Part shown: positions 1,734 through 54,085 of the stretch, one piece after another
Layout of the letters: every line of letters starts with the position of its first letter
Position numbering within the stretch: the first letter of the stretch is position 1
Sequence record: KY608965.1
Source of the DNA: Escherichia phage phiEC1
DNA: 64,000 nucleotides
Direction: 5' to 3' (one strand)
Made by a program: the position numbers and the translations under genes
Notes under the pieces: generated by a model
What the model was told of the DNA's origin: nothing
What the model saw: only the letters and a program-made list of their open reading frames with translations
Database searches by the model: none

Positions 1734-2633
1734 TTATTCCTCGATTACGACATCTTCGTATTTAGGTATATTATACGGCGAAGAAATTAAAGCATTAAAG
1801 TAGATGAACTCACCAAGACCTGGATGGAATACTTCTTCAGGATTTTCGAAATATTGAATCTTCGGACGTCCTTTAAGAATTTGATAGTACTCAGTTTTAG
1901 TTGGATTAAAAATTCGAATCAGCGCTTCTTCAGGATACTTATTTCTGTCGAAGCTATTATTTGGATCGGTTATATAAAGCGGTTGACCTAATTGAATTGC
2001 GCATTCAACCACTTGTTCAAAACGATAACACGGGTCACTAATTCGAAATGGATGAAAAATACCATCTAGATGAATAGGAGCCAAATCACCTACAAGACGC
2101 TGCATGACGGAAGGACGTATAACTTTCTGCGTTACGATAATCTTATTACCATCGGCACCTGCGTTAACCAGCACTTCCTTTTGACGTTCATTCAACACAG
2201 TAGTTTGAAGTGAACGATTAACAGACAACATGTCGGTTTTTAAGAATTCATCAATATAAAAACGTGGTTTATTAGGGTCTGCAGTGATATTGAAATTGAA
2301 TTCTACGTCAAAAGCGCCATCATATCCAGTGATATCTGTGATTAGAAAATCACAATCATAATAAGCAATTAATGAATCAACCACAAATTCATTTTCAGAC
2401 CAAAAATATTTACGAGTGTTATATGCGTTATCTTTATACCATAATGGAACAAACTTAAATTCCGGGAAAAGACGTTCACATTCTTTAATATCAGATGCAT
2501 TACGTGGATATGTAATCACATCACCTGGATTAGCACGGTGCAAATGAAGTTGGAAGTTGCCATCCTTAAGGATAGCATACTGTCCAGTTTCATAAGACCG
2601 CATACTCAAGATAGGTACGCGGAAAATAGCCAT
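1734..2633 (-). CDS. hypothetical protein, candidate DNA sugar-transferase of the modification module
   Basis: 299-aa ORF, stop/start coupled to neighbours; no motif I can assign; role inferred from position only. Confidence 0.5.
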   Translation of the reverse strand: MAIFRVPILSMRSYETGQYAILKDGNFQLHLHRANPGDVITYPRNASDIKECERLFPEFKFVPLWYKDNAYNTRKYFWSENEFVVDSLIAYYDCDFLITDITGYDGAFDVEFNFNITADPNKPRFYIDEFLKTDMLSVNRSLQTTVLNERQKEVLVNAGADGNKIIVTQKVIRPSVMQRLVGDLAPIHLDGIFHPFRISDPCYRFEQVVECAIQLGQPLYITDPNNSFDRNKYPEEALIRIFNPTKTEYYQILKGRPKIQYFENPEEVFHPGLGEFIYFNALISSPYNIPKYEDVVIEE

Positions 2634-3349
2634 TAGTCAAGGAATCCTTTAACATAATCAAAATCACGTTCAAACACATGGGCACTTACCATGGTATGAG
2701 TATAATCACCAACTTCTACACCGCATTCGTTAGCGATATAATGAAGTAATTTTCCTTGGAGATAAAAATCCAACTGCATAACAACAGCACAGTTCTGAGA
2801 ACGCATATGGCAGTGGGTATAAAGCTTACCATCACGAATATAATAAGTCACTGAGTCAGTACATGGATATTCAAGTGTTTCGTCCGAATCAAGCAAAGCC
2901 TGATCAGAACTTTCTAGAATTTGGAACACAACTCTTCGAGAGTTAGGTTTCTCTTTAAGTTCTTTTAGAAGAGCTGGTAATTGGGCCACAATGCGAGGAC
3001 CATAGAAAGTGTTGAAGTTCGCAGGCAAAGCATCTGATTTTGGTTTAGAAATGAATTTAGCGACATTAGGATATGCCTTAAACGCTTCTTCTGCATCAGT
3101 ACCACCAGAAATCATAAACTTCCAGAAGTCTTCGGCATATTCATAAGAGATGCGGTTAATACGTGGGTCGGTCATTTTGAACGATGATGGATTGTCAACA
3201 ACTACTGTCATGGACCCGATTTCATTACAACGTCCAATACGAGAATCAGTTACGAATTCCGGGTTTTCTAAAATTTCACGATTGACTGCTTTAAATGCGG
3301 TTTGAAAATCTGCGGCTTTGATATATTTCATTGTGTTATGTTTTCCCAT
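2633..3349 (-). CDS. 42: deoxycytidylate hydroxymethylase-like (thymidylate synthase fold, gene 42 family)
   Basis: 238 aa; motifs KPNSRRVVFQ, YPCTDSVTYYIRDG, HMRSQN...QLDF, HVFERDF parallel T4 gp42 NPDSRRGIMIY, MCTNTVQYLIRD, NMRSND...RNDY, HVYSRHF; Asp at the pyrimidine-specificity position. Confidence 0.75.
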   Translation of the reverse strand: MGKHNTMKYIKAADFQTAFKAVNREILENPEFVTDSRIGRCNEIGSMTVVVDNPSSFKMTDPRINRISYEYAEDFWKFMISGGTDAEEAFKAYPNVAKFISKPKSDALPANFNTFYGPRIVAQLPALLKELKEKPNSRRVVFQILESSDQALLDSDETLEYPCTDSVTYYIRDGKLYTHCHMRSQNCAVVMQLDFYLQGKLLHYIANECGVEVGDYTHTMVSAHVFERDFDYVKGFLD

Positions 3350-3391
3350 GTTTACCTCAATACAATTTATTATATACTCAATTCATAAAGC

Positions 3392-3631
3392 TTATTTGAA
3401 TTTCTTGGCAATGTTGATATAACGTAAAGCTTCAGAATCTATACTTCCAAGAACACTATGAAGAAATGCATCAGCGTAGTATTCCAATTGAACAGGTTCT
3501 TTAATCACTTTAGCCGCTTTGGTTTCAAACAGGCCCATCAGGGCCTTTTTAAGAATTTGTTCATTAGTGTTCAGTTTTATAGTCAAAATCTCTTCATTAA
3601 GTTGGTGGTTAAAAGTTTTTCTAGAAATCAT
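3392..3631 (-). CDS. hypothetical small protein
   Basis: 79-aa ORF; start overlaps upstream stop (ATGA coupling). Confidence 0.45.
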   Translation of the reverse strand: MISRKTFNHQLNEEILTIKLNTNEQILKKALMGLFETKAAKVIKEPVQLEYYADAFLHSVLGSIDSEALRYINIAKKFK

Positions 3632-4797
3632 TCCGGGTACCTCAAAGCGTCATCAGAGTTAGTTATATCAATAATAGATATAGAGTTTTCTGATAACCCA
3701 TTTTTAGATAACTGACGTTTATAATATCTTTCACAATATGTACACGTCGTCCCGCAGATTTCATTAGCACAATCGAAATCTGGATGTCTGAACCACCTTT
3801 TTTCTAAAAAGCCATCTAACAAAGAGGTTTCAATATTTACTGTATGTGAAAACTCAGTTTCGTTTTCAAGAGTGAAAATAGTCTCTAAAGGCTTCCACAG
3901 TTCTAACAAATTACCTTCAAACTTTTCAGAAGCGTATGCTTCAAGAACTTTCAAAATGTAGTCTGTGCTACCTGTACGTCCTGAAACTTTGAATTGAGTG
4001 ATACCAATATCATTATAAAGTTTCAAATCTTGAGGACGAACAAAACGAGTTCTCAACCAGTTAAATGGGTCTGTATCACGAGCTTTAATACAGTGCTGCA
4101 TAGGATATCCGTTTAAGGATTTAGCATCATCAGCTGTAACATCAGTACTATGGAAAATATAGCAAGAGTCACGATAGCTACAATGTGTTGTATACCCTTT
4201 ACCAGCATTAGAACAGAACTCATTTACAAGAACTTCAAATATTATATTGTTCTTATTGCAAAACTCTGCTGCACGCTTCAGGAAAGAAACTGAACGGTTC
4301 TTATGAATTCCGCAACAGACTTTTTTGATGTTATATTGGTCGTGCAAGTATTTGATTTGAGTTACGGCATCAACATGTAGAATTGTTGAAACTTCAATCT
4401 CAATATCTTTATTGACTTCACGAACAATTTCCATAACAACAGGGTTAGCGATAGTAATACGCCATACGCCTATTGACCAAAGATACTGAACATAATCCTG
4501 AATAGCTTTCTTCTTCCACTCAACTAGTTCTCTTTTTGAACCAGGATTTATCGTGTTGAGTGTATAGTTAAAGCAAATACCTAATTCGTTACAACGTTTA
4601 ACGTAGTCTTCTAACATCTTTTTGTCAACGTCAGGAAGCCTAAAATCAGGTCTGGCTGCTACAAAAGCCATTTCTCTTGTAGAGCCATATACTTCGTTTA
4701 TCAAGCTATTAGGATAGGTTTTATTGAGCTCTACGATTTTATCAAGAAGAGCTAAATCAAAATTCGTTCCGATTTTAAAAGTATTCATTTTTTGCAT
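3628..4797 (-). CDS. cysteine-rich hypothetical enzyme (possible TIM-barrel/Fe-S protein)
   Basis: 389 aa; Cys cluster CCGIH...FC...CSNAGKGYTTHCSYRDSC and C-terminal CANEICGTTCTYCERYY; weak resemblance to U32-family proteins, not confirmed. Confidence 0.55.
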   Translation of the reverse strand: MQKMNTFKIGTNFDLALLDKIVELNKTYPNSLINEVYGSTREMAFVAARPDFRLPDVDKKMLEDYVKRCNELGICFNYTLNTINPGSKRELVEWKKKAIQDYVQYLWSIGVWRITIANPVVMEIVREVNKDIEIEVSTILHVDAVTQIKYLHDQYNIKKVCCGIHKNRSVSFLKRAAEFCNKNNIIFEVLVNEFCSNAGKGYTTHCSYRDSCYIFHSTDVTADDAKSLNGYPMQHCIKARDTDPFNWLRTRFVRPQDLKLYNDIGITQFKVSGRTGSTDYILKVLEAYASEKFEGNLLELWKPLETIFTLENETEFSHTVNIETSLLDGFLEKRWFRHPDFDCANEICGTTCTYCERYYKRQLSKNGLSENSISIIDITNSDDALRYPE

Positions 4798-4844
4798 CTC
4801 GCGTTAATTGATGCGATGGTTTTTTGCAGGTCTTACTTAAATTA

Positions 4845-5231
4845 TTATAGATTCGGTTTATATGATTTAAATGTTTCGAATTCGCCTTTATTCATAAGAG
4901 CTTTGAATTCGTCAGGACGCATAGCTTTGTCGTCGATAATCCAATCATATACTGGTTTATGTGTTAGCAAATTATGATACTTCAAACCAATGTTTTCCAA
5001 GTTCTGAATCAGACTTGGGAGAATGTCAATTGCTATACGTCCAGGACCTACTGACTTCATACCGCGTGCAGTATAAAGCGTTATAGTATGCCCTGCATCA
5101 TACAGGGCATTAATGGCGGTCACCATTTCGACGTCTGGTTTGAAGTTCACATAATCACGATTGTTATTCCACTCTGTTATACAATCATCGACATCAAAAC
5201 AAAGATTAAGCATGTTTTCTACACGGTGCAT
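4845..5231 (-). CDS. HAD-superfamily phosphatase
   Basis: Motif I FDVDDCIT, motif II ITLYTAR, motif III HKP, motif IV WIIDDK; ATG at 5229-5231 overlaps upstream TAA. Confidence 0.65.
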   Translation of the reverse strand: MHRVENMLNLCFDVDDCITEWNNNRDYVNFKPDVEMVTAINALYDAGHTITLYTARGMKSVGPGRIAIDILPSLIQNLENIGLKYHNLLTHKPVYDWIIDDKAMRPDEFKALMNKGEFETFKSYKPNL

Positions 5232-6916
5232 TAGATTCGTTCCCATTGATGAGTGATATCGCCACCGATTGGACGATAGGAAACACCAGTTTCTTTATCA
5301 GTTAGTACCCATTTACCAGGATTTTTTGTAATCAGAGTAGCCGTTACAGGTTCTGCTACGTCATAACTAATAGAGCCGTCTTGAAGTACACGGCCCATGT
5401 TACGTAATTGCTTAGTCAGAAGTTCCATACCTTTATAATATGCGGCAACCGCTTTAAGTGGATTATTCTTGAAATAACCACCTAATGCAATCCAAATAAT
5501 TGCTACAGCCAAATGATGATACTCGTTAAACGAACTCATCTTTCCATATTTGTAAACTAATGGATTGATGTTAATAGTCACATTACAAGTTGTTTCATCA
5601 ATAGTAAACTGTCCCCAGGTCGGATTAGCATTGAATTCATCATAACCTGAAACAGCATAAAGCACTTTAGCTTCATCATACAATTTTGGCCCGTAAATCT
5701 TGGTTTCACCAAAATATCCACGAGGGTCGATAAACTTGACTTCGCCGTTATCAGTAATCATAGTATTACTGAAGTTTGGGTCACCGTGAATAACAGAGTA
5801 CTGTCCCTGAGAACGGTTATGATAACGAATAAGATGTTCTAAAGCTTGTTTCAACATTGGCTTCAGACGTCCAATCTTAGTGTAGTTCACGTGTGTGATT
5901 TTACCAAATGAATCAATCAATGGCTGAATGCTTTCACAACGATCAATAACTTTCGTATAGAACTCTTTAGTGAAATCACGGCGAACAGTTTCAGGACTTA
6001 CAAAATAAGTGTCTGTGCTGAATTTCAGTGCATCTAAAATTGCATCAACAATTTGTGGACGAGCAAGACTTGATTTGGATTTAATATATTCAAATGCCGG
6101 CTTACCTTTAATACGTTCCATTTCAAAATTATTTTCATTTACCGAAACTAACTGAGGAACTGAATCTGATTTCACTTTCAAATACCATGAAATCTCATCT
6201 TTTTGAAGAGCTCGACCTTGTTCGGTTAACGCGAATTTAGTTACAGTTTCTTCGCCAATTTCAACTGCATTAAAACTACGATTAAGTTCACGAACTTCAT
6301 GAGCTTTTTCAAGTTTAGGCATATCACCTAAATCAATTAGATTCATAAGCTCTGATTTATTGAATGCACTGCCGTAAAGGAATTCTACGAAATCACGTCC
6401 TTTGCAGTATTCGTGAATTTCCTCGTCAGTAGAACCCATGTAGAATTCCCAGTCTTTGAACTGATAAATTCCTACAACATTACCGCCTGTTGAACCTACG
6501 TTAGTGATATTTTCACCATCGAAATTATATCGACATTCATCACCCTTAACATAGATTGCGTTAACATTCCAAGACCATGAACCAAAATCAGGAATAATAT
6601 CACACCAGTTAACAATTACATTATGGCCATCTAAATCTTTGTATAATTTAGCAAGAGCATAAGCAGAACCATACGCTTCATCAACTGTACGAATAGTCAC
6701 ATTGAACCCTTCTTGCTCACAATAAGCTCGAACAGTTTCAGCAAATTTTGAATGAACTACTACAATAATTTCATCTGCGCCAAGGTCAGAATAAATTGTA
6801 TACAAATTGCTCAGAATAGTGTCTTGCTTATAGTTCACAAGAACTTTTGGAATATGGTGAGTAATTGGATATAAACGAGTTGCCAATCCAGCACCAAGAA
6901 TAACAGCTTTTTTCAT
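5231..6916 (-). CDS. bifunctional sugar-1-phosphate nucleotidyltransferase / APH-like anomeric sugar kinase
   Basis: N-terminus VILGAGLATRLYPIT (RmlA/GlmU-type G-x-G-T-R-L-x-P-x-T); C-terminus VIHGDPNFSN...FIDPRGYFG (aminoglycoside/choline-kinase-type catalytic loop); SD GAGGA upstream. Confidence 0.8.
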   Translation of the reverse strand: MKKAVILGAGLATRLYPITHHIPKVLVNYKQDTILSNLYTIYSDLGADEIIVVVHSKFAETVRAYCEQEGFNVTIRTVDEAYGSAYALAKLYKDLDGHNVIVNWCDIIPDFGSWSWNVNAIYVKGDECRYNFDGENITNVGSTGGNVVGIYQFKDWEFYMGSTDEEIHEYCKGRDFVEFLYGSAFNKSELMNLIDLGDMPKLEKAHEVRELNRSFNAVEIGEETVTKFALTEQGRALQKDEISWYLKVKSDSVPQLVSVNENNFEMERIKGKPAFEYIKSKSSLARPQIVDAILDALKFSTDTYFVSPETVRRDFTKEFYTKVIDRCESIQPLIDSFGKITHVNYTKIGRLKPMLKQALEHLIRYHNRSQGQYSVIHGDPNFSNTMITDNGEVKFIDPRGYFGETKIYGPKLYDEAKVLYAVSGYDEFNANPTWGQFTIDETTCNVTININPLVYKYGKMSSFNEYHHLAVAIIWIALGGYFKNNPLKAVAAYYKGMELLTKQLRNMGRVLQDGSISYDVAEPVTATLITKNPGKWVLTDKETGVSYRPIGGDITHQWERI

Positions 6917-6957
6917 GTTGAAGTCCTCATTGGTAAGTAGGTGTATTGTACACTATT

Positions 6958-7101
6958 CTAGTTAAAGCATTCATACTTTGCTTGTAGTCCAATCATAATC
7001 CATCCAATTACAAGTGTTGGAATCATTACTGGAGCCGTTAAGCTCCAGTAGATAGTCATGACAAGCATCAATAGTAAAAGTCCTATTGTTATTGCTTTCA
7101 T
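6958..7101 (-). CDS. small hydrophobic protein (47 aa), not in ORF track
   Basis: MKAITIGLLLLMLVMTIYWSLTAPVMIPTLVIGWIMIGLQAKYECFN; ATG overlaps the SIS-gene TGA (ATGA). Confidence 0.35.
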   Translation of the reverse strand: MKAITIGLLLLMLVMTIYWSLTAPVMIPTLVIGWIMIGLQAKYECFN

Positions 7102-7733
7102 TGTTCGCCTCGTAACATGGCACCTAGTGCACCGCCTGGATGGAACTTAAGGAAGTCATTAGAGGTAAATCCACGTTCAGACGAAAGGTTGATAGCAAAC
7201 GTATCGATAAGCGCTAACAACAATGTAGTGGACATGGTCGGAGCCAGAGAATTCTCGTCAACCTCTACCGCGATACCGGTACAGAACGTATAATCAAAAA
7301 GAGCTTCGTATTCTTGCGGAATGTCAGGGTTACAATGTAACAGAATCTGTTTAACCTGAGGACGAATCATACGAAGATGTTTAGCAACACCTATCATTTC
7401 TTCAGTCTTACCAGAACGACTGATGTGAACTAATACATCATTGGGTGCAATAAATCCTGCATCCCCATGAGAATAATGCCCAGTGTTCAAGTACATACTC
7501 GGGATACCGAGTGAAGCAAAAGTCTCTGAAGCTTTAGTTGCGATATTAGCGTTCTTACCAACACCTGTAATAATTACACGACTTTCATAATTACTCAGTC
7601 CAGGGCGACGAAGAGTTTCAAGAATAACATTATATCGGGCAGAGTTTTGACTAATTACTTTAGCCATAGTGGCAAGAGATGAAGCTTGTTTTACGATTGC
7701 GTCAATAGCGATAGTGATTGGTGTAGTTTTCAT
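7098..7733 (-). CDS. SIS-domain sugar-phosphate isomerase, KdsD/GutQ-like arabinose-5-phosphate isomerase without CBS domains
   Basis: GVGKNANIATKASETFASLGIPS, HISRSGKTEE, LAPTMSTT, FHPGGALG match the KdsD SIS domain (GMGKSGHIG..., ISNSGES, LAPTSSTT, HPGGALG). Confidence 0.8.
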   Translation of the reverse strand: MKTTPITIAIDAIVKQASSLATMAKVISQNSARYNVILETLRRPGLSNYESRVIITGVGKNANIATKASETFASLGIPSMYLNTGHYSHGDAGFIAPNDVLVHISRSGKTEEMIGVAKHLRMIRPQVKQILLHCNPDIPQEYEALFDYTFCTGIAVEVDENSLAPTMSTTLLLALIDTFAINLSSERGFTSNDFLKFHPGGALGAMLRGEQ

Positions 7734-40372: not shown

Positions 40373-40681
40373 TCAATTAGAAAATAAATTTATCCAAGTT
40401 TTTTCTTTAATCAAAAATGGGTCGGAATTAAACGCCATTAAACTTTGAGTGATTAATCCCTTAAATGGCCCATCAATAAATTCCATTTTGAAATGTGGAA
40501 TACTAGTCATCAACCGCGCATTAGGAGCAGTACAAAGAACCTGCTGCCCTGAGAACGGACCTTTAGTCAAACGATATCGTTTAGGTTTAAAATGGTAAAT
40601 CTCGTAATTTTCTACAAGAGCCCTTTTATTGCATACTGGGCTGTTATAACAATATTCAAAAACTTCAATAGTGGTCATCAT
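40373..40681 (-). CDS. hypothetical protein
   Basis: 102-aa ORF. Confidence 0.45.
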   Translation of the reverse strand: MMTTIEVFEYCYNSPVCNKRALVENYEIYHFKPKRYRLTKGPFSGQQVLCTAPNARLMTSIPHFKMEFIDGPFKGLITQSLMAFNSDPFLIKEKTWINLFSN

Positions 40682-41217
40682 TGCATTCCAATCACAAAAA
40701 ATTGAGGACGAGCGTTACCGCCGATGCAATATTTGCTTTTGCAGCAGGGCTGTACTGTTTTAATGTGGACATTGTAAATCTTATCCATATCAGGAGCTTT
40801 AATAGGCTCGTCAATTATATACAGAATACGAGAAAGCGTTAATCCACGGAATTTAGAACCTTCATTGCCAATAAAACTACGAACAGAATCGGTAAATAAA
40901 CGGAATCGAATATCGTCGCTAGAATAACGCGAAAATTCTTTTTCAATGTTGCCAGCAGAAATTTTAGCATAAGCTGAAGTATTAGAAAGAACAATAACTG
41001 TTCCACCATCATACAGCCAATTAGCAGCAAAGTTAGTCACAGCAATTGATTTACCTGATTGTCGGCCGCCATCTAAACGAAGTGTACAGTACTGCTTGAG
41101 TACGTCTTCAAATGGTGGGACATAACCGTTCTTACAAATTTCTTCTACTCTAGCATCAGAATGGTGTGTAAAAGCATTCATCAGGGATAGATAAGGTCCA
41201 GTTAAAAATGTTCTCAT
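40678..41217 (-). CDS. P-loop NTPase-like protein
   Basis: Walker A-like DGGRQSGKS, Walker B-like LYIIDEP. Confidence 0.5.
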   Translation of the reverse strand: MRTFLTGPYLSLMNAFTHHSDARVEEICKNGYVPPFEDVLKQYCTLRLDGGRQSGKSIAVTNFAANWLYDGGTVIVLSNTSAYAKISAGNIEKEFSRYSSDDIRFRLFTDSVRSFIGNEGSKFRGLTLSRILYIIDEPIKAPDMDKIYNVHIKTVQPCCKSKYCIGGNARPQFFVIGMQ

Positions 41218-41360
41218 TTAGTTTCTCTTAAGGTTGGGCCATTCCATGGCGCATGAATTGTCCGTTTCTGTATTTACCCATTACCGCACTTGGGCTCGAC
41301 CTTATTACAGGTTGGCGGGAATCCCTCATAGAATAATGAGGTCCAGGTTGTTCCCATTTT

Positions 41361-41392
41361 ATTTAAATGTAAATAGGCCTATACTTAGGCCT
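41361..41392 (-). terminator. putative terminator
   Basis: AGGCCU-n6-AGGCCU hairpin after ipIII-like stop, U-rich tail. Confidence 0.45.
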
Positions 41393-41394
41393 TA

Positions 41395-41973
41395 TTAATT
41401 ACCACGGGCTGCATTAGCAACGGCGTAAGCGTACTGAACATTAGCGTCTTTAAACGTACCTTTAGAGGTATCTATTTCTGCCTTAAAGCCGCCTTTAGCC
41501 ATAACATCAGCAAATTCTTTACGGAAAGCCATTGCGTCAAGACCTTTCCATGATGATTTATGCTTGGCAAATTCAAGACCTGCGAAGTTGACAGCTTTAG
41601 CCAATTTATTATCAATGACCCATTTACCTGCTTTAGGCACAAACTTCGGGCCTTTTTGTTTAGAGAACAGTTTTAAATTCCAGCGACGAAGGTCACTGTC
41701 GGCTTTAACAAAAGCTGCGTCTAAGTTACTAGCAACAACATCTTCAATATGAGCAAATTTAAGACCATCAACTTCAATATTTAGATCGTTACGCCAGCGA
41801 AGTCCTTCCCAAGCGAAGGCTTTAAAGTCGGAAGCCTTTGTAGCTAAGTACCGTTCAATAGGAGCAGTTTTAGGGTCAAAGCCGTTTCCGCCACGATAAT
41901 TCCACTCGTCCTTATTAATGCCTTGAGCTTTTCCTGCAAAGGCCTCGGCGATAAATTCTTTATATGTTTTCAT
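41395..41973 (-). CDS. ipIII: internal protein III-like (capsid-targeted)
   Basis: N-terminal MKTYKEFIAEA capsid-targeting leader; 192 aa. Confidence 0.7.
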   Translation of the reverse strand: MKTYKEFIAEAFAGKAQGINKDEWNYRGGNGFDPKTAPIERYLATKASDFKAFAWEGLRWRNDLNIEVDGLKFAHIEDVVASNLDAAFVKADSDLRRWNLKLFSKQKGPKFVPKAGKWVIDNKLAKAVNFAGLEFAKHKSSWKGLDAMAFRKEFADVMAKGGFKAEIDTSKGTFKDANVQYAYAVANAARGN

Positions 41974-41999
41974 TTTTGTTCCTATTCTTTTAATTTATG

Positions 42000-42314
42000 T
42001 TATTCTTTAGGGAAGTTTTTAGAGTATGCGTCATAAAGTTTATTACCGATGCGACGGAAGACTTTAGCTGCAAAACGGTTTTCAGGGTTTTTAATCATGA
42101 TTTGCATCATGTAAGTTCCTGCATCCGAAAGAGCTTCTTCATAGTACCCATTAATTTCTTTAAGAGTCCTACGTTTACCACCAGGACCATCAACAGTAAT
42201 TTTCCATTTACCTGTAGAAGTGCGGCTCGGTGGCTCAACTTGTTCAATCCAAATATAACCACCTTCAACGCGTTGGTTGGCGGATTCTGCAATAAATTCT
42301 TTATACGTTTTCAT
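42000..42314 (-). CDS. ipII: internal protein II-like (capsid-targeted)
   Basis: MKTYKEFIAES leader; 104 aa. Confidence 0.65.
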   Translation of the reverse strand: MKTYKEFIAESANQRVEGGYIWIEQVEPPSRTSTGKWKITVDGPGGKRRTLKEINGYYEEALSDAGTYMMQIMIKNPENRFAAKVFRRIGNKLYDAYSKNFPKE

Positions 42315-42340
42315 TTTTGTTTCCTTGTTTGTTTTGATAG

Positions 42341-42374
42341 AGTAATTATACCATATTAATACTTAAGCGTAAAC
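42341..42374 (-). promoter_or_regulatory. early promoter (TTTACG-17-TATAAT)
   Basis: Transcribed strand TTTACGCTTAAGTATTAATATGGTATAAT upstream of ipII-like gene. Confidence 0.5.
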
Positions 42375-42377
42375 AAT

Positions 42378-42494
42378 TTAAGCTTTACCGCCAGAAATAA
42401 TTCCGAAGTTGTTAAAATCGTATCCAATATCGTCAACATCTACTTTAGGACCTTTGGCATCTGCTTCAATGATAAATTCTTGATACATTTTCAT
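42378..42494 (-). CDS. mini internal-protein-like ORF (38 aa), not in ORF track
   Basis: MKMYQEFIIEADAKGPKVDVDDIGYDFNNFGIISGGKA; SD AAGGA. Confidence 0.4.
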   Translation of the reverse strand: MKMYQEFIIEADAKGPKVDVDDIGYDFNNFGIISGGKA

Positions 42495-42500
42495 TTTTCC

Positions 42501-42914
42501 TTAGTAAATTGATTTACCATAGTATTTGTACCAAGTCGGACGTTGAGCAATTTTTTCATCTAAGCGTGCTTGACTTATCGCAATGGACGCTTCGGACGGG
42601 ACATAATTATTACGAAATTCGGCAGGAATGTCGGAAATATCCTGGACAGTCGTGTCCTTGATTTTGAAACCACGTTTCAAGCATTCAGCTATTAGCTCGA
42701 TTTGACGTAAACGTAAAAATTCGAGTTTGTCATAAAAGAATGTTACGTGACCTGTGCCTAAGATAAATGTTGGAGAGATTTTAAAATCCTTTACACGTTT
42801 ACCATTTTGAACATGTTTACGGACTGCACCAAATACGCGTGGTAATTCACGATACTCAGCCATAAGATGTTGGTCGGTCAGTTCAGAAACAAGTGTTAAA
42901 TTGATACGAGTCAT
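42501..42914 (-). CDS. denV: endonuclease V (pyrimidine-dimer DNA glycosylase) DenV
   Basis: [29 protein letters not shown]... matches T4 DenV; SD GGAGG. Confidence 0.92.
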
Positions 42915-42940
42915 AATTTCCTCCAAGTAGTTGATAGATG

Positions 42941-42971
42941 TATAGTATCAAAACCCTTGGAGGAAGTAAAC
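42941..42971 (-). promoter_or_regulatory. early promoter cassette
   Basis: GTTTACTTCCTCCAAGGGTTTTGATACTATACATCTATC. Confidence 0.4.
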
Positions 42972-42972
42972 A

Positions 42973-43254
42973 CTATTTTTCTGAAGCGCCTGAAATATAT
43001 TTTTCAAGACGTTGTTTCATCAGCGAGCCGTTCTTAGCGATTTCTTCCGGTTTATCGCACATACGCAACAGTGCTTCAAGCTTAGCGATATCGCTGGTAC
43101 GTTCAAATTTGCGAGTATCTATCTTACTGGCAAGTTCAGAAATACGTGCTAATAGACTTTCAGCTTCAACCAAAGCTGCACCTAGCTTAGTTGCAAATGT
43201 GTCAGTAGCTTCGTTAAGAATAGATTCTGATAAAAATTCACTATATGTTTTCAT
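42973..43254 (-). CDS. internal-protein-like protein with CTS leader
   Basis: [11 protein letters not shown] leader; ATGA overlap with gene e stop. Confidence 0.6.
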
Positions 43255-43739
43255 ATATACGCTTTCCAAGTTCCTGTTTTAAATGTTGAGATTACGCGTT
43301 TTGCGCGATTAGGTGTCTGACGATACCATTTAGATTGGGCGAGATTTACTGCCGCTTCATCCCAACGTTTCTGTTGAAGCATACGAAGAGAATTAGTAAA
43401 ACCGGCGACGCCTGATACGCCCATTTGGAAGACCATATTGACTAATGCACATCGACGAACCGCGTCTAAAGAATCATACACCGGTTTAAGTTTAGCATTA
43501 CCCAAGATTCCGCGAACGGCTTTATCGACGTCTTCATTAAATAGCTTTTCAGCCTCATCAAGGGTAATTGTACCGTTGCATTTACGACCGATCATTCTGT
43601 CAAGTTCAGCTTTAGCTACGGCTAAAGACGGGTTCTTTGTTACTAAATGGCCTATGCCAATCGTCCAAAAGCCTTCAGTGTCTTTATATAAAGTCAGTCT
43701 AAGACCTTCATCATTACGAAGCATTTCAAATATATTCAT
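43251..43739 (-). CDS. e: lysozyme (endolysin) gene e
   Basis: [32 protein letters not shown]... matches T4 lysozyme; SD GGAGG. Confidence 0.95.
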
Positions 43740-43773
43740 AATACCTCCCACGTTTATAGGAGGTATTTATTAC

Positions 43774-44232
43774 TTATAGGAGGGTAGTGAGCACCTTATA
43801 TAATGATTTGCCCATTACATATTCCCATTGAGAAGGTTTAATTAAAGCGAATGCATCAAATTCAGGAATTTGTCGTCCGTCTGGGAATGTATGATAGGAA
43901 TTACAAACACTGTTTCTGAATTGCTCGTGCTCTACAGGGATGGTATATAGGAACAGATGAATATTCTTATTGTCTGAGTAATGATGTTCACCTAGGTCTT
44001 TCAGGAAGGCAGGGTCATATTGTGTAAACCCAGTTTCTTCTTCGCATTCACGAATAGCGGCTTCAATAGGAGATTCGCCAGGTTCGACACGGCCTTTAGG
44101 AATATCCCACCGATGAGCTAATGCACCTTTAGAACGAGAACCAGTTACACGACCCATGAATAATTCTTTATCTTCGGTAAGGAAAATAATACCGGCTGAT
44201 AGTTCTTTCACTTTATTTTTCTTACTCATCAT
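43774..44232 (-). CDS. nudE: Nudix hydrolase NudE
   Basis: Nudix box GRVEPGESPIEAAIRECEEETG. Confidence 0.85.
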   Translation of the reverse strand: MMSKKNKVKELSAGIIFLTEDKELFMGRVTGSRSKGALAHRWDIPKGRVEPGESPIEAAIRECEEETGFTQYDPAFLKDLGEHHYSDNKNIHLFLYTIPVEHEQFRNSVCNSYHTFPDGRQIPEFDAFALIKPSQWEYVMGKSLYKVLTTLL

Positions 44233-53797: not shown

Positions 53798-54085
53798 TTA
53801 TAGAAGAGTTTTTGCAATAATTTTAAGCTGAGCTACAGAAATATGCTTAGCTTTAAACAGTGCAGTCTCTTCAGCCGGAGAGATAACAATAGTAGCGCCA
53901 TCTTTCTTAGCAGACCATCCATCCCCTAAGTAAACAGTACCTTTTACTTCTTCACCATCAACCAGACTAATCATTGGTTTACCCTCACGTCCTTTATTTG
54001 TTTTAATAACTTCAGAAGTAAGGGATGCTTCGGTCAGAGTAGAAACGTTAGCAACAGGTGATATAAATTCTTTATAGGTTTTCAT
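53798..54085 (-). CDS. internal protein I-like (capsid-targeted), ipI locus
   Basis: MKTYKEFISPVANV... CTS-like leader; position next to 57B as T4 ipI. Confidence 0.65.
   Translation of the reverse strand: MKTYKEFISPVANVSTLTEASLTSEVIKTNKGREGKPMISLVDGEEVKGTVYLGDGWSAKKDGATIVISPAEETALFKAKHISVAQLKIIAKTLL

Follow-up and report, generated by a model that had tools for sequence, protein, structure and literature searches.

The closest described counterparts of the genes considered here are the internal-protein (ip) genes of phage T4 and related phages. The capsid-targeting sequence (CTS) of T4 comprises the first 10 residues of IPIII, within which targeting depends on positions 4 and 7 and processing on positions 8 and 10 (PMC9026906). 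The targeting determinants, Tyr/Phe4 and Phe7, come from the work of Mullaney and Black (1996), as summarised in PMC9026906. The prohead protease gp21 cleaves after L/I-x-Glu, and the 10-residue CTS by itself suffices in T4 to package foreign proteins (PMC9026906). Leader-mediated modular shuffling of ip genes was proposed in 1994 by Repoila and colleagues (cited in PMC3012670). The idea of such a leader goes back to 1994-1996; that the internal proteins act against restriction was established between 2007 and 2025.

T4 Ip1, Ip2 and Ip3 each inhibit one distinct subtype of GmrSD type IV enzyme without cross-protection (PMC12373910), which bears out the statement in the original prediction that a T4 internal protein blocks modification-dependent restriction. 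The IPI proteins of T4 and RB69 have been reported as inhibitors of GmrSD of the CT596 type, and GmrSD cleaves the DNA of RB69, against which RB69 IPI gives protection (PMC6024577). T4 Ip2 inhibits the BrxU-like ECOR21 enzyme (PMC12373910), while T4 infection of ECOR17 requires IPIII. Another leader-bearing protein, Bas37_0260, inhibits McrBC (10.1101/2025.11.20.689424). A further set, ip4-10, for which we use the definitions given by database names and citing papers, gave no reproducible inhibition against a panel of GmrSD variants, in constructs that may differ from the alleles described below (PMC12373910). Internal proteins thus represent a pre-loaded, injected phage countermeasure against modification-dependent restriction.

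The source of the DNA analysed here, a 64-kb stretch referred to as the window, is a T-even phage belonging to the RB69 group (Mosigvirus). Over positions 41200-43800, its closest public record is Mosigvirus p000v, with 96.9% nucleotide identity. This region matches 868 phage records, of which just 64 cover 80% or more of it without interruption, indicating a variable locus. The features of the region, together with a fifth leader-bearing gene elsewhere in the window, are as follows.

41375..41392, minus strand: terminator-like hairpin directly 3' of the stop codon of ipIII, where the array ends
41395..41973, minus strand: ipIII orthologue, 192 aa, beginning MKTYKEFIAEAF
42000..42314, minus strand: ip10, 104 aa, beginning MKTYKEFIAESA
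42345..42373, minus strand: promoter-like site 5' of ip10, sigma-70/T4-early type, TTTACG-17-TATAAT with TG
42378..42494, minus strand: truncated internal-protein gene, 38 aa, beginning MKMYQEFIIEAD (phrog_35655)
42501-42926, minus strand: denV (Pfam Pyr_excise)
42973..43254, minus strand: Ip5-family gene, 93 aa, its ATG overlapping the stop codon of lysozyme e (ATGA)
43251-43751, minus strand: lysozyme e (Pfam Phage_lysozyme)
53798..54085, minus strand: ipI orthologue, 95 aa, beginning MKTYKEFISPVA

Along the minus strand in the 5' to 3' direction, lysozyme e is followed by the 93-aa ORF, denV, the 38-aa ORF, the promoter-like site, the 104-aa ORF, the 192-aa ORF, the hairpin and a vs.8 homologue. 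The Pfam assignments of denV and e agree with the original prediction, which had placed the array around these two genes, and the fifth gene adjoins 57B, 57A and gene 1, as ipI does in T4 and as had been proposed. The array had been given an end at 43269; the 93-aa ORF found there is real, but 43269 belongs to a TTG of the mechanical ORF that lies in frame and upstream, and the gene itself occupies 42973-43254.

A leader of the form MKTY-EF(I/L) starts these five minus-strand ORFs and no other ORF in the window. A six-frame scan of the window with the pattern M[KR]x[YF]x[ED]F[ILVM] returned exactly five sites, all of them the starts of the leader ORFs, as against a chance expectation of 0.02 (the mean of 200 shuffled windows, with a maximum of 1). 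The prediction of five leader-bearing ORFs therefore holds at each of the positions proposed. MK(T/M)Y-EF is present in all five, and Tyr4 and Phe7, the residues needed for targeting, are kept throughout. In sequence-motif terms, the gp21 processing signal L/I-x-Glu is also found in all five ORFs; in four of these it takes the form [I/L]8-x-E10 (IAE10, IAE10, IIE10 and LSE10). The fifth, IPI, lacks Glu10 and instead carries LTE19 directly before its mature domain. With the T4 CTS determinants in place, and with two of the genes being orthologues of T4 IPIII and IPI, the description of the leader as capsid-targeting is well founded. The genes for the prohead protease and the scaffold fall outside the 64-kb window. 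Both gp21, the prohead protease, and gp22, the scaffolding core protein, are generally counted among the core genes that all T4-like phages share (PMC9026906).

Behind the leader, the five proteins have nothing in common. An all-against-all BLASTP comparison aligned them only from residue 1 to about residues 11-18, indicating that the bodies are unrelated, and the DNA behaves in the same way: between leader genes, coding nucleotides 1-30 are identical at 20-26 of 30 positions, while over nucleotides 31-48 identity is at chance (4-8 of 18). Both results uphold the earlier claim of unrelated bodies. Each of the five ORFs lies at an ip hotspot, of which there are two (the e/denV/vs.8 side and the 57B/tRNA side). 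RBS-like motifs (AGGAA/GGAAA) precede four of the genes, and the fifth is ATGA-coupled to lysozyme e. An NCBIfam search of the internal proteins gave no match, and a Pfam search matched IPI alone; PDB sequence searches with IPIII, Ip10 and the 93-aa family were without match. Compared with database proteins, all five ORFs can be placed in known families.

The 192-aa protein is 92.7% identical to T4 IPIII over its full length (192 aa) and 98.4% identical to p000v gp240, and it matches phrog_5341, 'internal virion protein', with an E value of 2e-117. Its CTS is predicted to be residues 1-10. The protein contains a single [LIV]xE site, at E10, so that the predicted cut after IAE10 would leave a 182-aa mature protein with a pI of 9.6. 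CTS and cut site are the same as in T4 IPIII (Ip3), the inhibitor of the two-gene ECOR17 GmrSD.

The 95-aa protein is 86.3% identical to T4 IPI, its mature part differing at 6 of 76 positions. Residues 20-95 match both Pfam IPI_T4 (PF11634; E 2.6e-49, 165.5 bits against a gathering cut-off of 25) and PDB 2JUB, 'Internal protein I' (E 7.4e-41). As the position-10 glutamate is missing, the cut is predicted after LTE19, giving a 76-aa IPI* form. T4 IPI/IPI* (PF11634, 2JUB; inhibitor of the CT596 GmrSD) resembles it in its locus by 57B, in a leader without Glu10 and in a predicted cut after x-T-E19. By analogy with the T4 protein, the 76-aa IPI* form is taken to be the GmrSD inhibitor. The two phages differ in their DNA: T4 has glucosyl-hmC, whereas the phage in the window has an arabinosylation cluster. 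Whether substitutions change the enzyme specificity of IPI is a question that has been raised for RB69 IPI (PMC6024577).

The 104-aa protein is 100% identical to p000v gp241, and its exact sequence occurs on 218 public contigs. It belongs to phrog_3966, shares a 90% cluster with 'Ip10 [Enterobacteria phage Pol]' (CAA84455, from a 1994 Krisch-lab study) and shows 72% identity at 100% coverage with Ip10 of Shigella phage SP18. The name Ip10 dates from 1994, as far as the sources citing that work indicate. Cleavage is predicted after IAE10, yielding a 94-aa mature protein with a pI of 9.6. An AF2 model of Ip10 was unusable (pLDDT 49).

The 93-aa protein is 98.9% identical to p000v gp244, 'internal head protein', and its exact sequence is found on 220 public contigs; copies of the 104-aa and the 93-aa proteins, exact or 98-100% identical, each occur on more than 200. 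BLASTP aligned it with bas37_0261 at 47.6% identity (E 1.6e-23), which in turn is 98.8% identical to P0068, named in UniRef as the 'Ip5 internal head protein' of phage T2. A profile of the 93-aa family found P0068 with an E value of 7.4e-16, and T2 Ip5 and bas37_0261 share with the 93-aa protein the motifs KLGxAL-EAE-L--RI-ELA and EIAKNGS-MK-RLE. Judged by these alignments, the 93-aa ORF is a divergent relative (subfamily) of T2 Ip5. An HMMER scan of 1.84 billion representative proteins with the family returned four relatives only, the T2 Ip5 protein among them, all being leader-bearing phage proteins of 84-94 aa. Two candidate cuts are present, after LSE10 and after the family-invariant LNE15, the latter leaving a 78-aa mature protein. 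N14-E15-A16 is invariant in the family while some relatives have lost E10, suggesting that the final cleavage probably takes place at (L/I)NE15-A16. The AF2 model of the 93-aa protein is all-helical, with three helices (pLDDT 73, pTM 0.35); a comparison with PDB folds gave no meaningful match (best E 6.9).

The 38-aa ORF is of a different nature. Over 201 nt it is 100% identical to the corresponding DNA of phage moha except for one exact 144-nt in-frame gap, bounded by an 8-bp direct repeat, GTCCTAAA. In the resulting ORF, residues 1-17 of a leader-bearing protein of 86 aa run directly into its residues 66-86. The truncated allele is contiguous in PhAPEC2, UGJNEcP1/2, 172859UKE1 and MRostami-2023e, and most relatives have 345 bp here (full gene). 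Trimming of its product would leave a predicted acidic peptide of 28 aa. The ORF is best read as an in-frame deletion allele of the 86-aa internal-protein gene and no gene type of its own, and it is probably defective or non-functional. Thus, the ORF does lie with its leader where the original prediction had it, but it is the remnant of a 144-bp deletion and not a distinct member of the array.

Gene order separates this locus from that of T4, which reads e-ipIII-ipII-denV-vs.8, as against e-ip5like-denV-(truncated ip)-ip10-ipIII-vs.8 in the window. With T4 IPII (Ip2; inhibitor of the BrxU-type GmrSD of ECOR21), the window proteins have only the leader in common: a tblastn search of the window for the IPII body gave just leader matches of 11-14 aa. 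Additional ip genes, IPII among them, are found between ipIII and vs.8 in some Mosigviruses (phi25-307) and in W143. The McrBC inhibitor Bas37_0260 shares the leader and the concept with the window proteins and differs in its body, for which leader-only matches and no body homology were found in any window ORF. In Bas37 the interval between e and denV is free of ip genes and the Ip5 homologue lies at the ipI locus, whereas the 93-aa gene of the window is translationally coupled to lysozyme e. Relatives of Ip5 and Ip10 occur at the other ip locus in Bas37/T2. Presumably, Ip10 of phage Pol also lies at the other ip locus.

The ip10 gene, at the denV locus in the window, is missing from close relatives such as moha. 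In moha, a segment equal to the promoter/RBS of ip10 stands directly 5' of ipIII; its DNA follows that of the window up to the ATG and then continues into ipIII. This switch at the ATG places the breakpoint within the shared aaaaATGAAAAC..TATAAAGAATTTAT leader DNA. Shared leader DNA acting as a recombination site, by which whole cassettes could be added, removed or moved, would account for the polymorphic array. This corresponds to the modular shuffling put forward in 1994.

Taken with the T4 literature, these observations suggest that the five ORFs are the ip genes of a Mosigvirus, located at the two classical loci (e-denV-vs.8 and 57B-tRNA), whose products are packaged, trimmed and injected and serve in anti-restriction; we give this reading a probability of roughly 85%. 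The gene identities, the conserved motifs, the deletion allele and the cassette breakpoint are direct observations, and the packaging, cleavage, injection and enzyme targets are carried over from T4 by homology. In this scheme, the N-terminal CTS of about 10 residues would bind each internal protein to the scaffolding core while the prohead assembles. Removal of the leader by gp21 would follow, with cleavage after L/I-x-Glu; the cut would fall behind residue 10 in IPIII, in Ip10 and in the product of the truncated gene, behind residue 19 in IPI, and behind residue 10, residue 15 or both in the Ip5-like protein. Once trimmed, the proteins, small and mostly basic, would stay with the packaged DNA and enter the next host along with the genome, acting ahead of any phage gene expression. 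A literature search for virion proteomics, N-terminal sequencing or injection data on Ip10, the Ip5-like protein and the 86-aa family found none.

The anti-restriction role differs in strength among the genes. Orthology to the T4 proteins marks IPI and IPIII of the window as inhibitors of type IV restriction, IPI* presumably blocking the CT596-type GmrSD and IPIII the two-gene ECOR17-type GmrSD. For Ip10 and the Ip5-like protein, the most likely targets would be further nucleases of the modification-dependent (type IV) class, which is a reasonable guess only, given that ip4-10 did not inhibit GmrSD reproducibly. The earlier description of the array as a source of anti-restriction candidates therefore stands for IPI and IPIII, but for Ip10 and the Ip5-like protein it amounts to a guess, the ip4-10 panel having been negative.

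That same negative panel suits the view that Ip10 and/or the Ip5-like protein are directed at first-response defences other than type IV enzymes, for instance nucleases of other kinds that act on hypermodified DNA, or systems without a nuclease. Further nuclease families against hypermodified phage genomes are being described (PMC12191111), and neither of the two bodies resembles any entry in Pfam, NCBIfam or PDB. Positive evidence for such targets is lacking, however, and type IV enzymes were the target in four of four solved cases; we regard this view as unlikely, though it is the strongest of the competing explanations.

Less probable still is that the proteins are packaged mainly as structural or charge-neutralising DNA-binding components of the condensed genome, with Ip10 and the Ip5-like protein having no anti-defence target. 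Mature IPI, Ip10 and IPIII are basic (pI 9.0-9.6), resembling the T4 internal proteins, whose lysines touch DNA phosphates (PMC3012670), and the failure of ip4-10 to inhibit any tested GmrSD reproducibly would also fit. Yet every leader-bearing protein of resolved function (Ip1, Ip2, Ip3 and Bas37_0260) is an inhibitor of type IV restriction, and the mature Ip5-like protein is near neutral, with a pI of 8.1 and a net charge of +1. Further, ip genes are dispensable and variable among close relatives, a pattern that an arms race fits better than a structural need.

That the small ORFs are decayed duplicates kept merely by their position in a hotspot, the leader likeness being a relic of duplication and not a working signal, is very improbable. 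In its favour, the 38-aa ORF has been shown to be what a deletion left behind, and the set of genes at the locus differs widely among phages (Bas37 has none between denV and e). Against it, the 104-aa and 93-aa proteins are intact, with exact sequences on about 220 contigs each, the Ip5 family keeps its leader and two body motifs at just 36-48% identity, which points to purifying selection, and a CTS of this length packages foreign proteins in T4 (PMC9026906).

Returning to the anti-restriction reading, its relation to the DNA modification of this phage needs separate consideration. Window positions 1734-7733 hold an RB69-type arabinosylation cluster (compare the p000v annotation), which encodes a homologue of thymidylate synthase, a U32-like protein, an NTP-transferase and an SIS isomerase. 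Clusters of this type make arabinosylated 5-hydroxycytosine in Mosigviruses (PMC13326640, PMC13390438). The original prediction had taken the internal proteins to be matched to the DNA modification of the phage. Despite this cluster, IPI and IPIII are 86-93% identical to the proteins of T4, a phage with glucosyl-hmC DNA; this near-identity, together with the enzyme-subtype specificity of the known inhibitors, leaves the proposed matching unsupported. The inhibitors are matched to enzyme subtypes and not to the modification.

BrxU, an enzyme of the GmrSD family, cleaves arabinosylated DNA and restricts a Mosigvirus. Since ipII is absent from the window and Ip2 is the inhibitor of a BrxU-like enzyme, the phage is predicted, by analogy, to be sensitive to BrxU-type GmrSD of the BrxU/ECOR21 class. 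We further put forward, as a tentative idea that we think has somewhat less than an even chance, that modification-dependent nucleases acting on DNA with arabinosylated 5-hydroxycytosine may be the targets of Ip10, of the Ip5-like protein and of the 86-aa family in its intact form. The published ip4-10 screen used tester phages with glucosyl-hmC (T2/T4/T6), and targets acting on arabinosylated DNA would therefore be invisible in it. If the idea is true, the array would provide direct handles on uncharted defences against Mosigvirus-type DNA.

In practical terms, the window holds IPI and IPIII together with the Ip10 and Ip5-like cassettes, lacks IPII and the McrBC inhibitor and has one broken cassette. 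The set of ip genes carried helps to decide which wild E. coli strains can be infected and is thus relevant to the choice of therapeutic T4-like phages. The observation of a leader-bearing array is real and was correctly read, but it is not novel: the leader/anti-restriction idea was published long ago (Repoila et al., 1994, as cited in PMC3012670) and hence no discovery is involved. Many published phages encode proteins 98-100% identical to those of the ip genes in the window, and these genes leave the current understanding unchanged.

With regard to expression, the promoter-like site at 42345..42373 agrees with the consensus at 10 of 12 positions, a consensus match only. A search near the array for the exact T4 late promoter (TATAAATA) found none, so that late expression of these genes is suggested by analogy and by the coupling to gene e. 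In the hairpin at 41375..41392, 4 of the 7 base pairs of the stem are GC, and a T-rich tail comes next. A structured RNA was also considered for the 177-nt gap that separates ipIII from the next gene and was rejected, as there was no credible Rfam hit and the fold z-score was -1.0; the gap corresponds to the split 5' end of vs.8.

The presence or absence of ip10 appears to follow from the leader that the internal-protein (ip) genes have in common. When window positions 41973-42373 are compared with the corresponding locus of phage moha (L005), the breakpoint falls within the shared leader DNA, and in moha ipIII is joined at its ATG to the promoter and RBS that serve ip10 in the window. This fusion indicates that ip10 is a cassette gained or lost through homologous recombination between leaders. 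In phage phi25-307 (L007), a segment of ~70 nt from upstream of vs.8 is duplicated 5' of an extra ip gene, gp082 (L007 812-883 versus window 41208-41278). This repeat may represent a second type of cassette junction, in which the leader is not involved.

Two further features of the denV locus concern shortened or broken genes.

42378-42494, minus strand: 38-aa ORF, a deletion allele of an 86-aa leader-bearing gene by comparison with moha
41218-41394: 177-nt 'gap' 3' of ipIII, a terminator-like hairpin followed by ~120 nt of the vs.8 5' end
41228-41329, minus strand: vs.8 fragment, 33-aa ORF
40678-41217, minus strand: vs.8 fragment, 179-aa ORF

The 38-aa ORF lacks exactly 144 bp, in frame, between two copies of GTCCTAAA; its deletion flanks are 100% identical to moha, and PhAPEC2, UGJNEcP1/2, 172859UKE1 and MRostami-2023e share this allele. 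Past the hairpin, the ~120 nt match T4 vs.8 at its 5' end with ~95% identity; in the window, vs.8 is broken in two by an 8-nt indel relative to T4. An Rfam search of the gap gave no credible match, and its RNA fold was not significant.

The Tequatrovirus Bas37 (KarlGJung; L008, 1353-2323) has denV directly adjoining e, with ip genes neither between nor beside them; thus, the whole denV-locus array can be lost. In the window, the 93-aa Ip5-like gene has a start codon that shares bases with the lysozyme e TGA (ATGA, 43251-43254), which suggests that its translation is coupled to that of this late gene.

The window also carries an RB69-type arabinosylation cluster, which implies that the phage DNA contains arabinosyl-5-hydroxycytosine rather than glucosyl-hmC.

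1734-7733: whole cluster
2633-3349: thymidylate-synthase homologue
3628-4797: Peptidase_U32-like protein
5231-6916: NTP-transferase, 561 aa
7098-7733: SIS isomerase

Start codons of leader-bearing genes appear to be mis-set in two public annotations: that of phi25-307 gp082 (L007 492-869) lies 16 codons 5' of the MKTYQEFITE leader, while that of p000v gp242 (L001 2680-2934) is Met3 (MYQEF...), two codons within the MKMYQEF leader.
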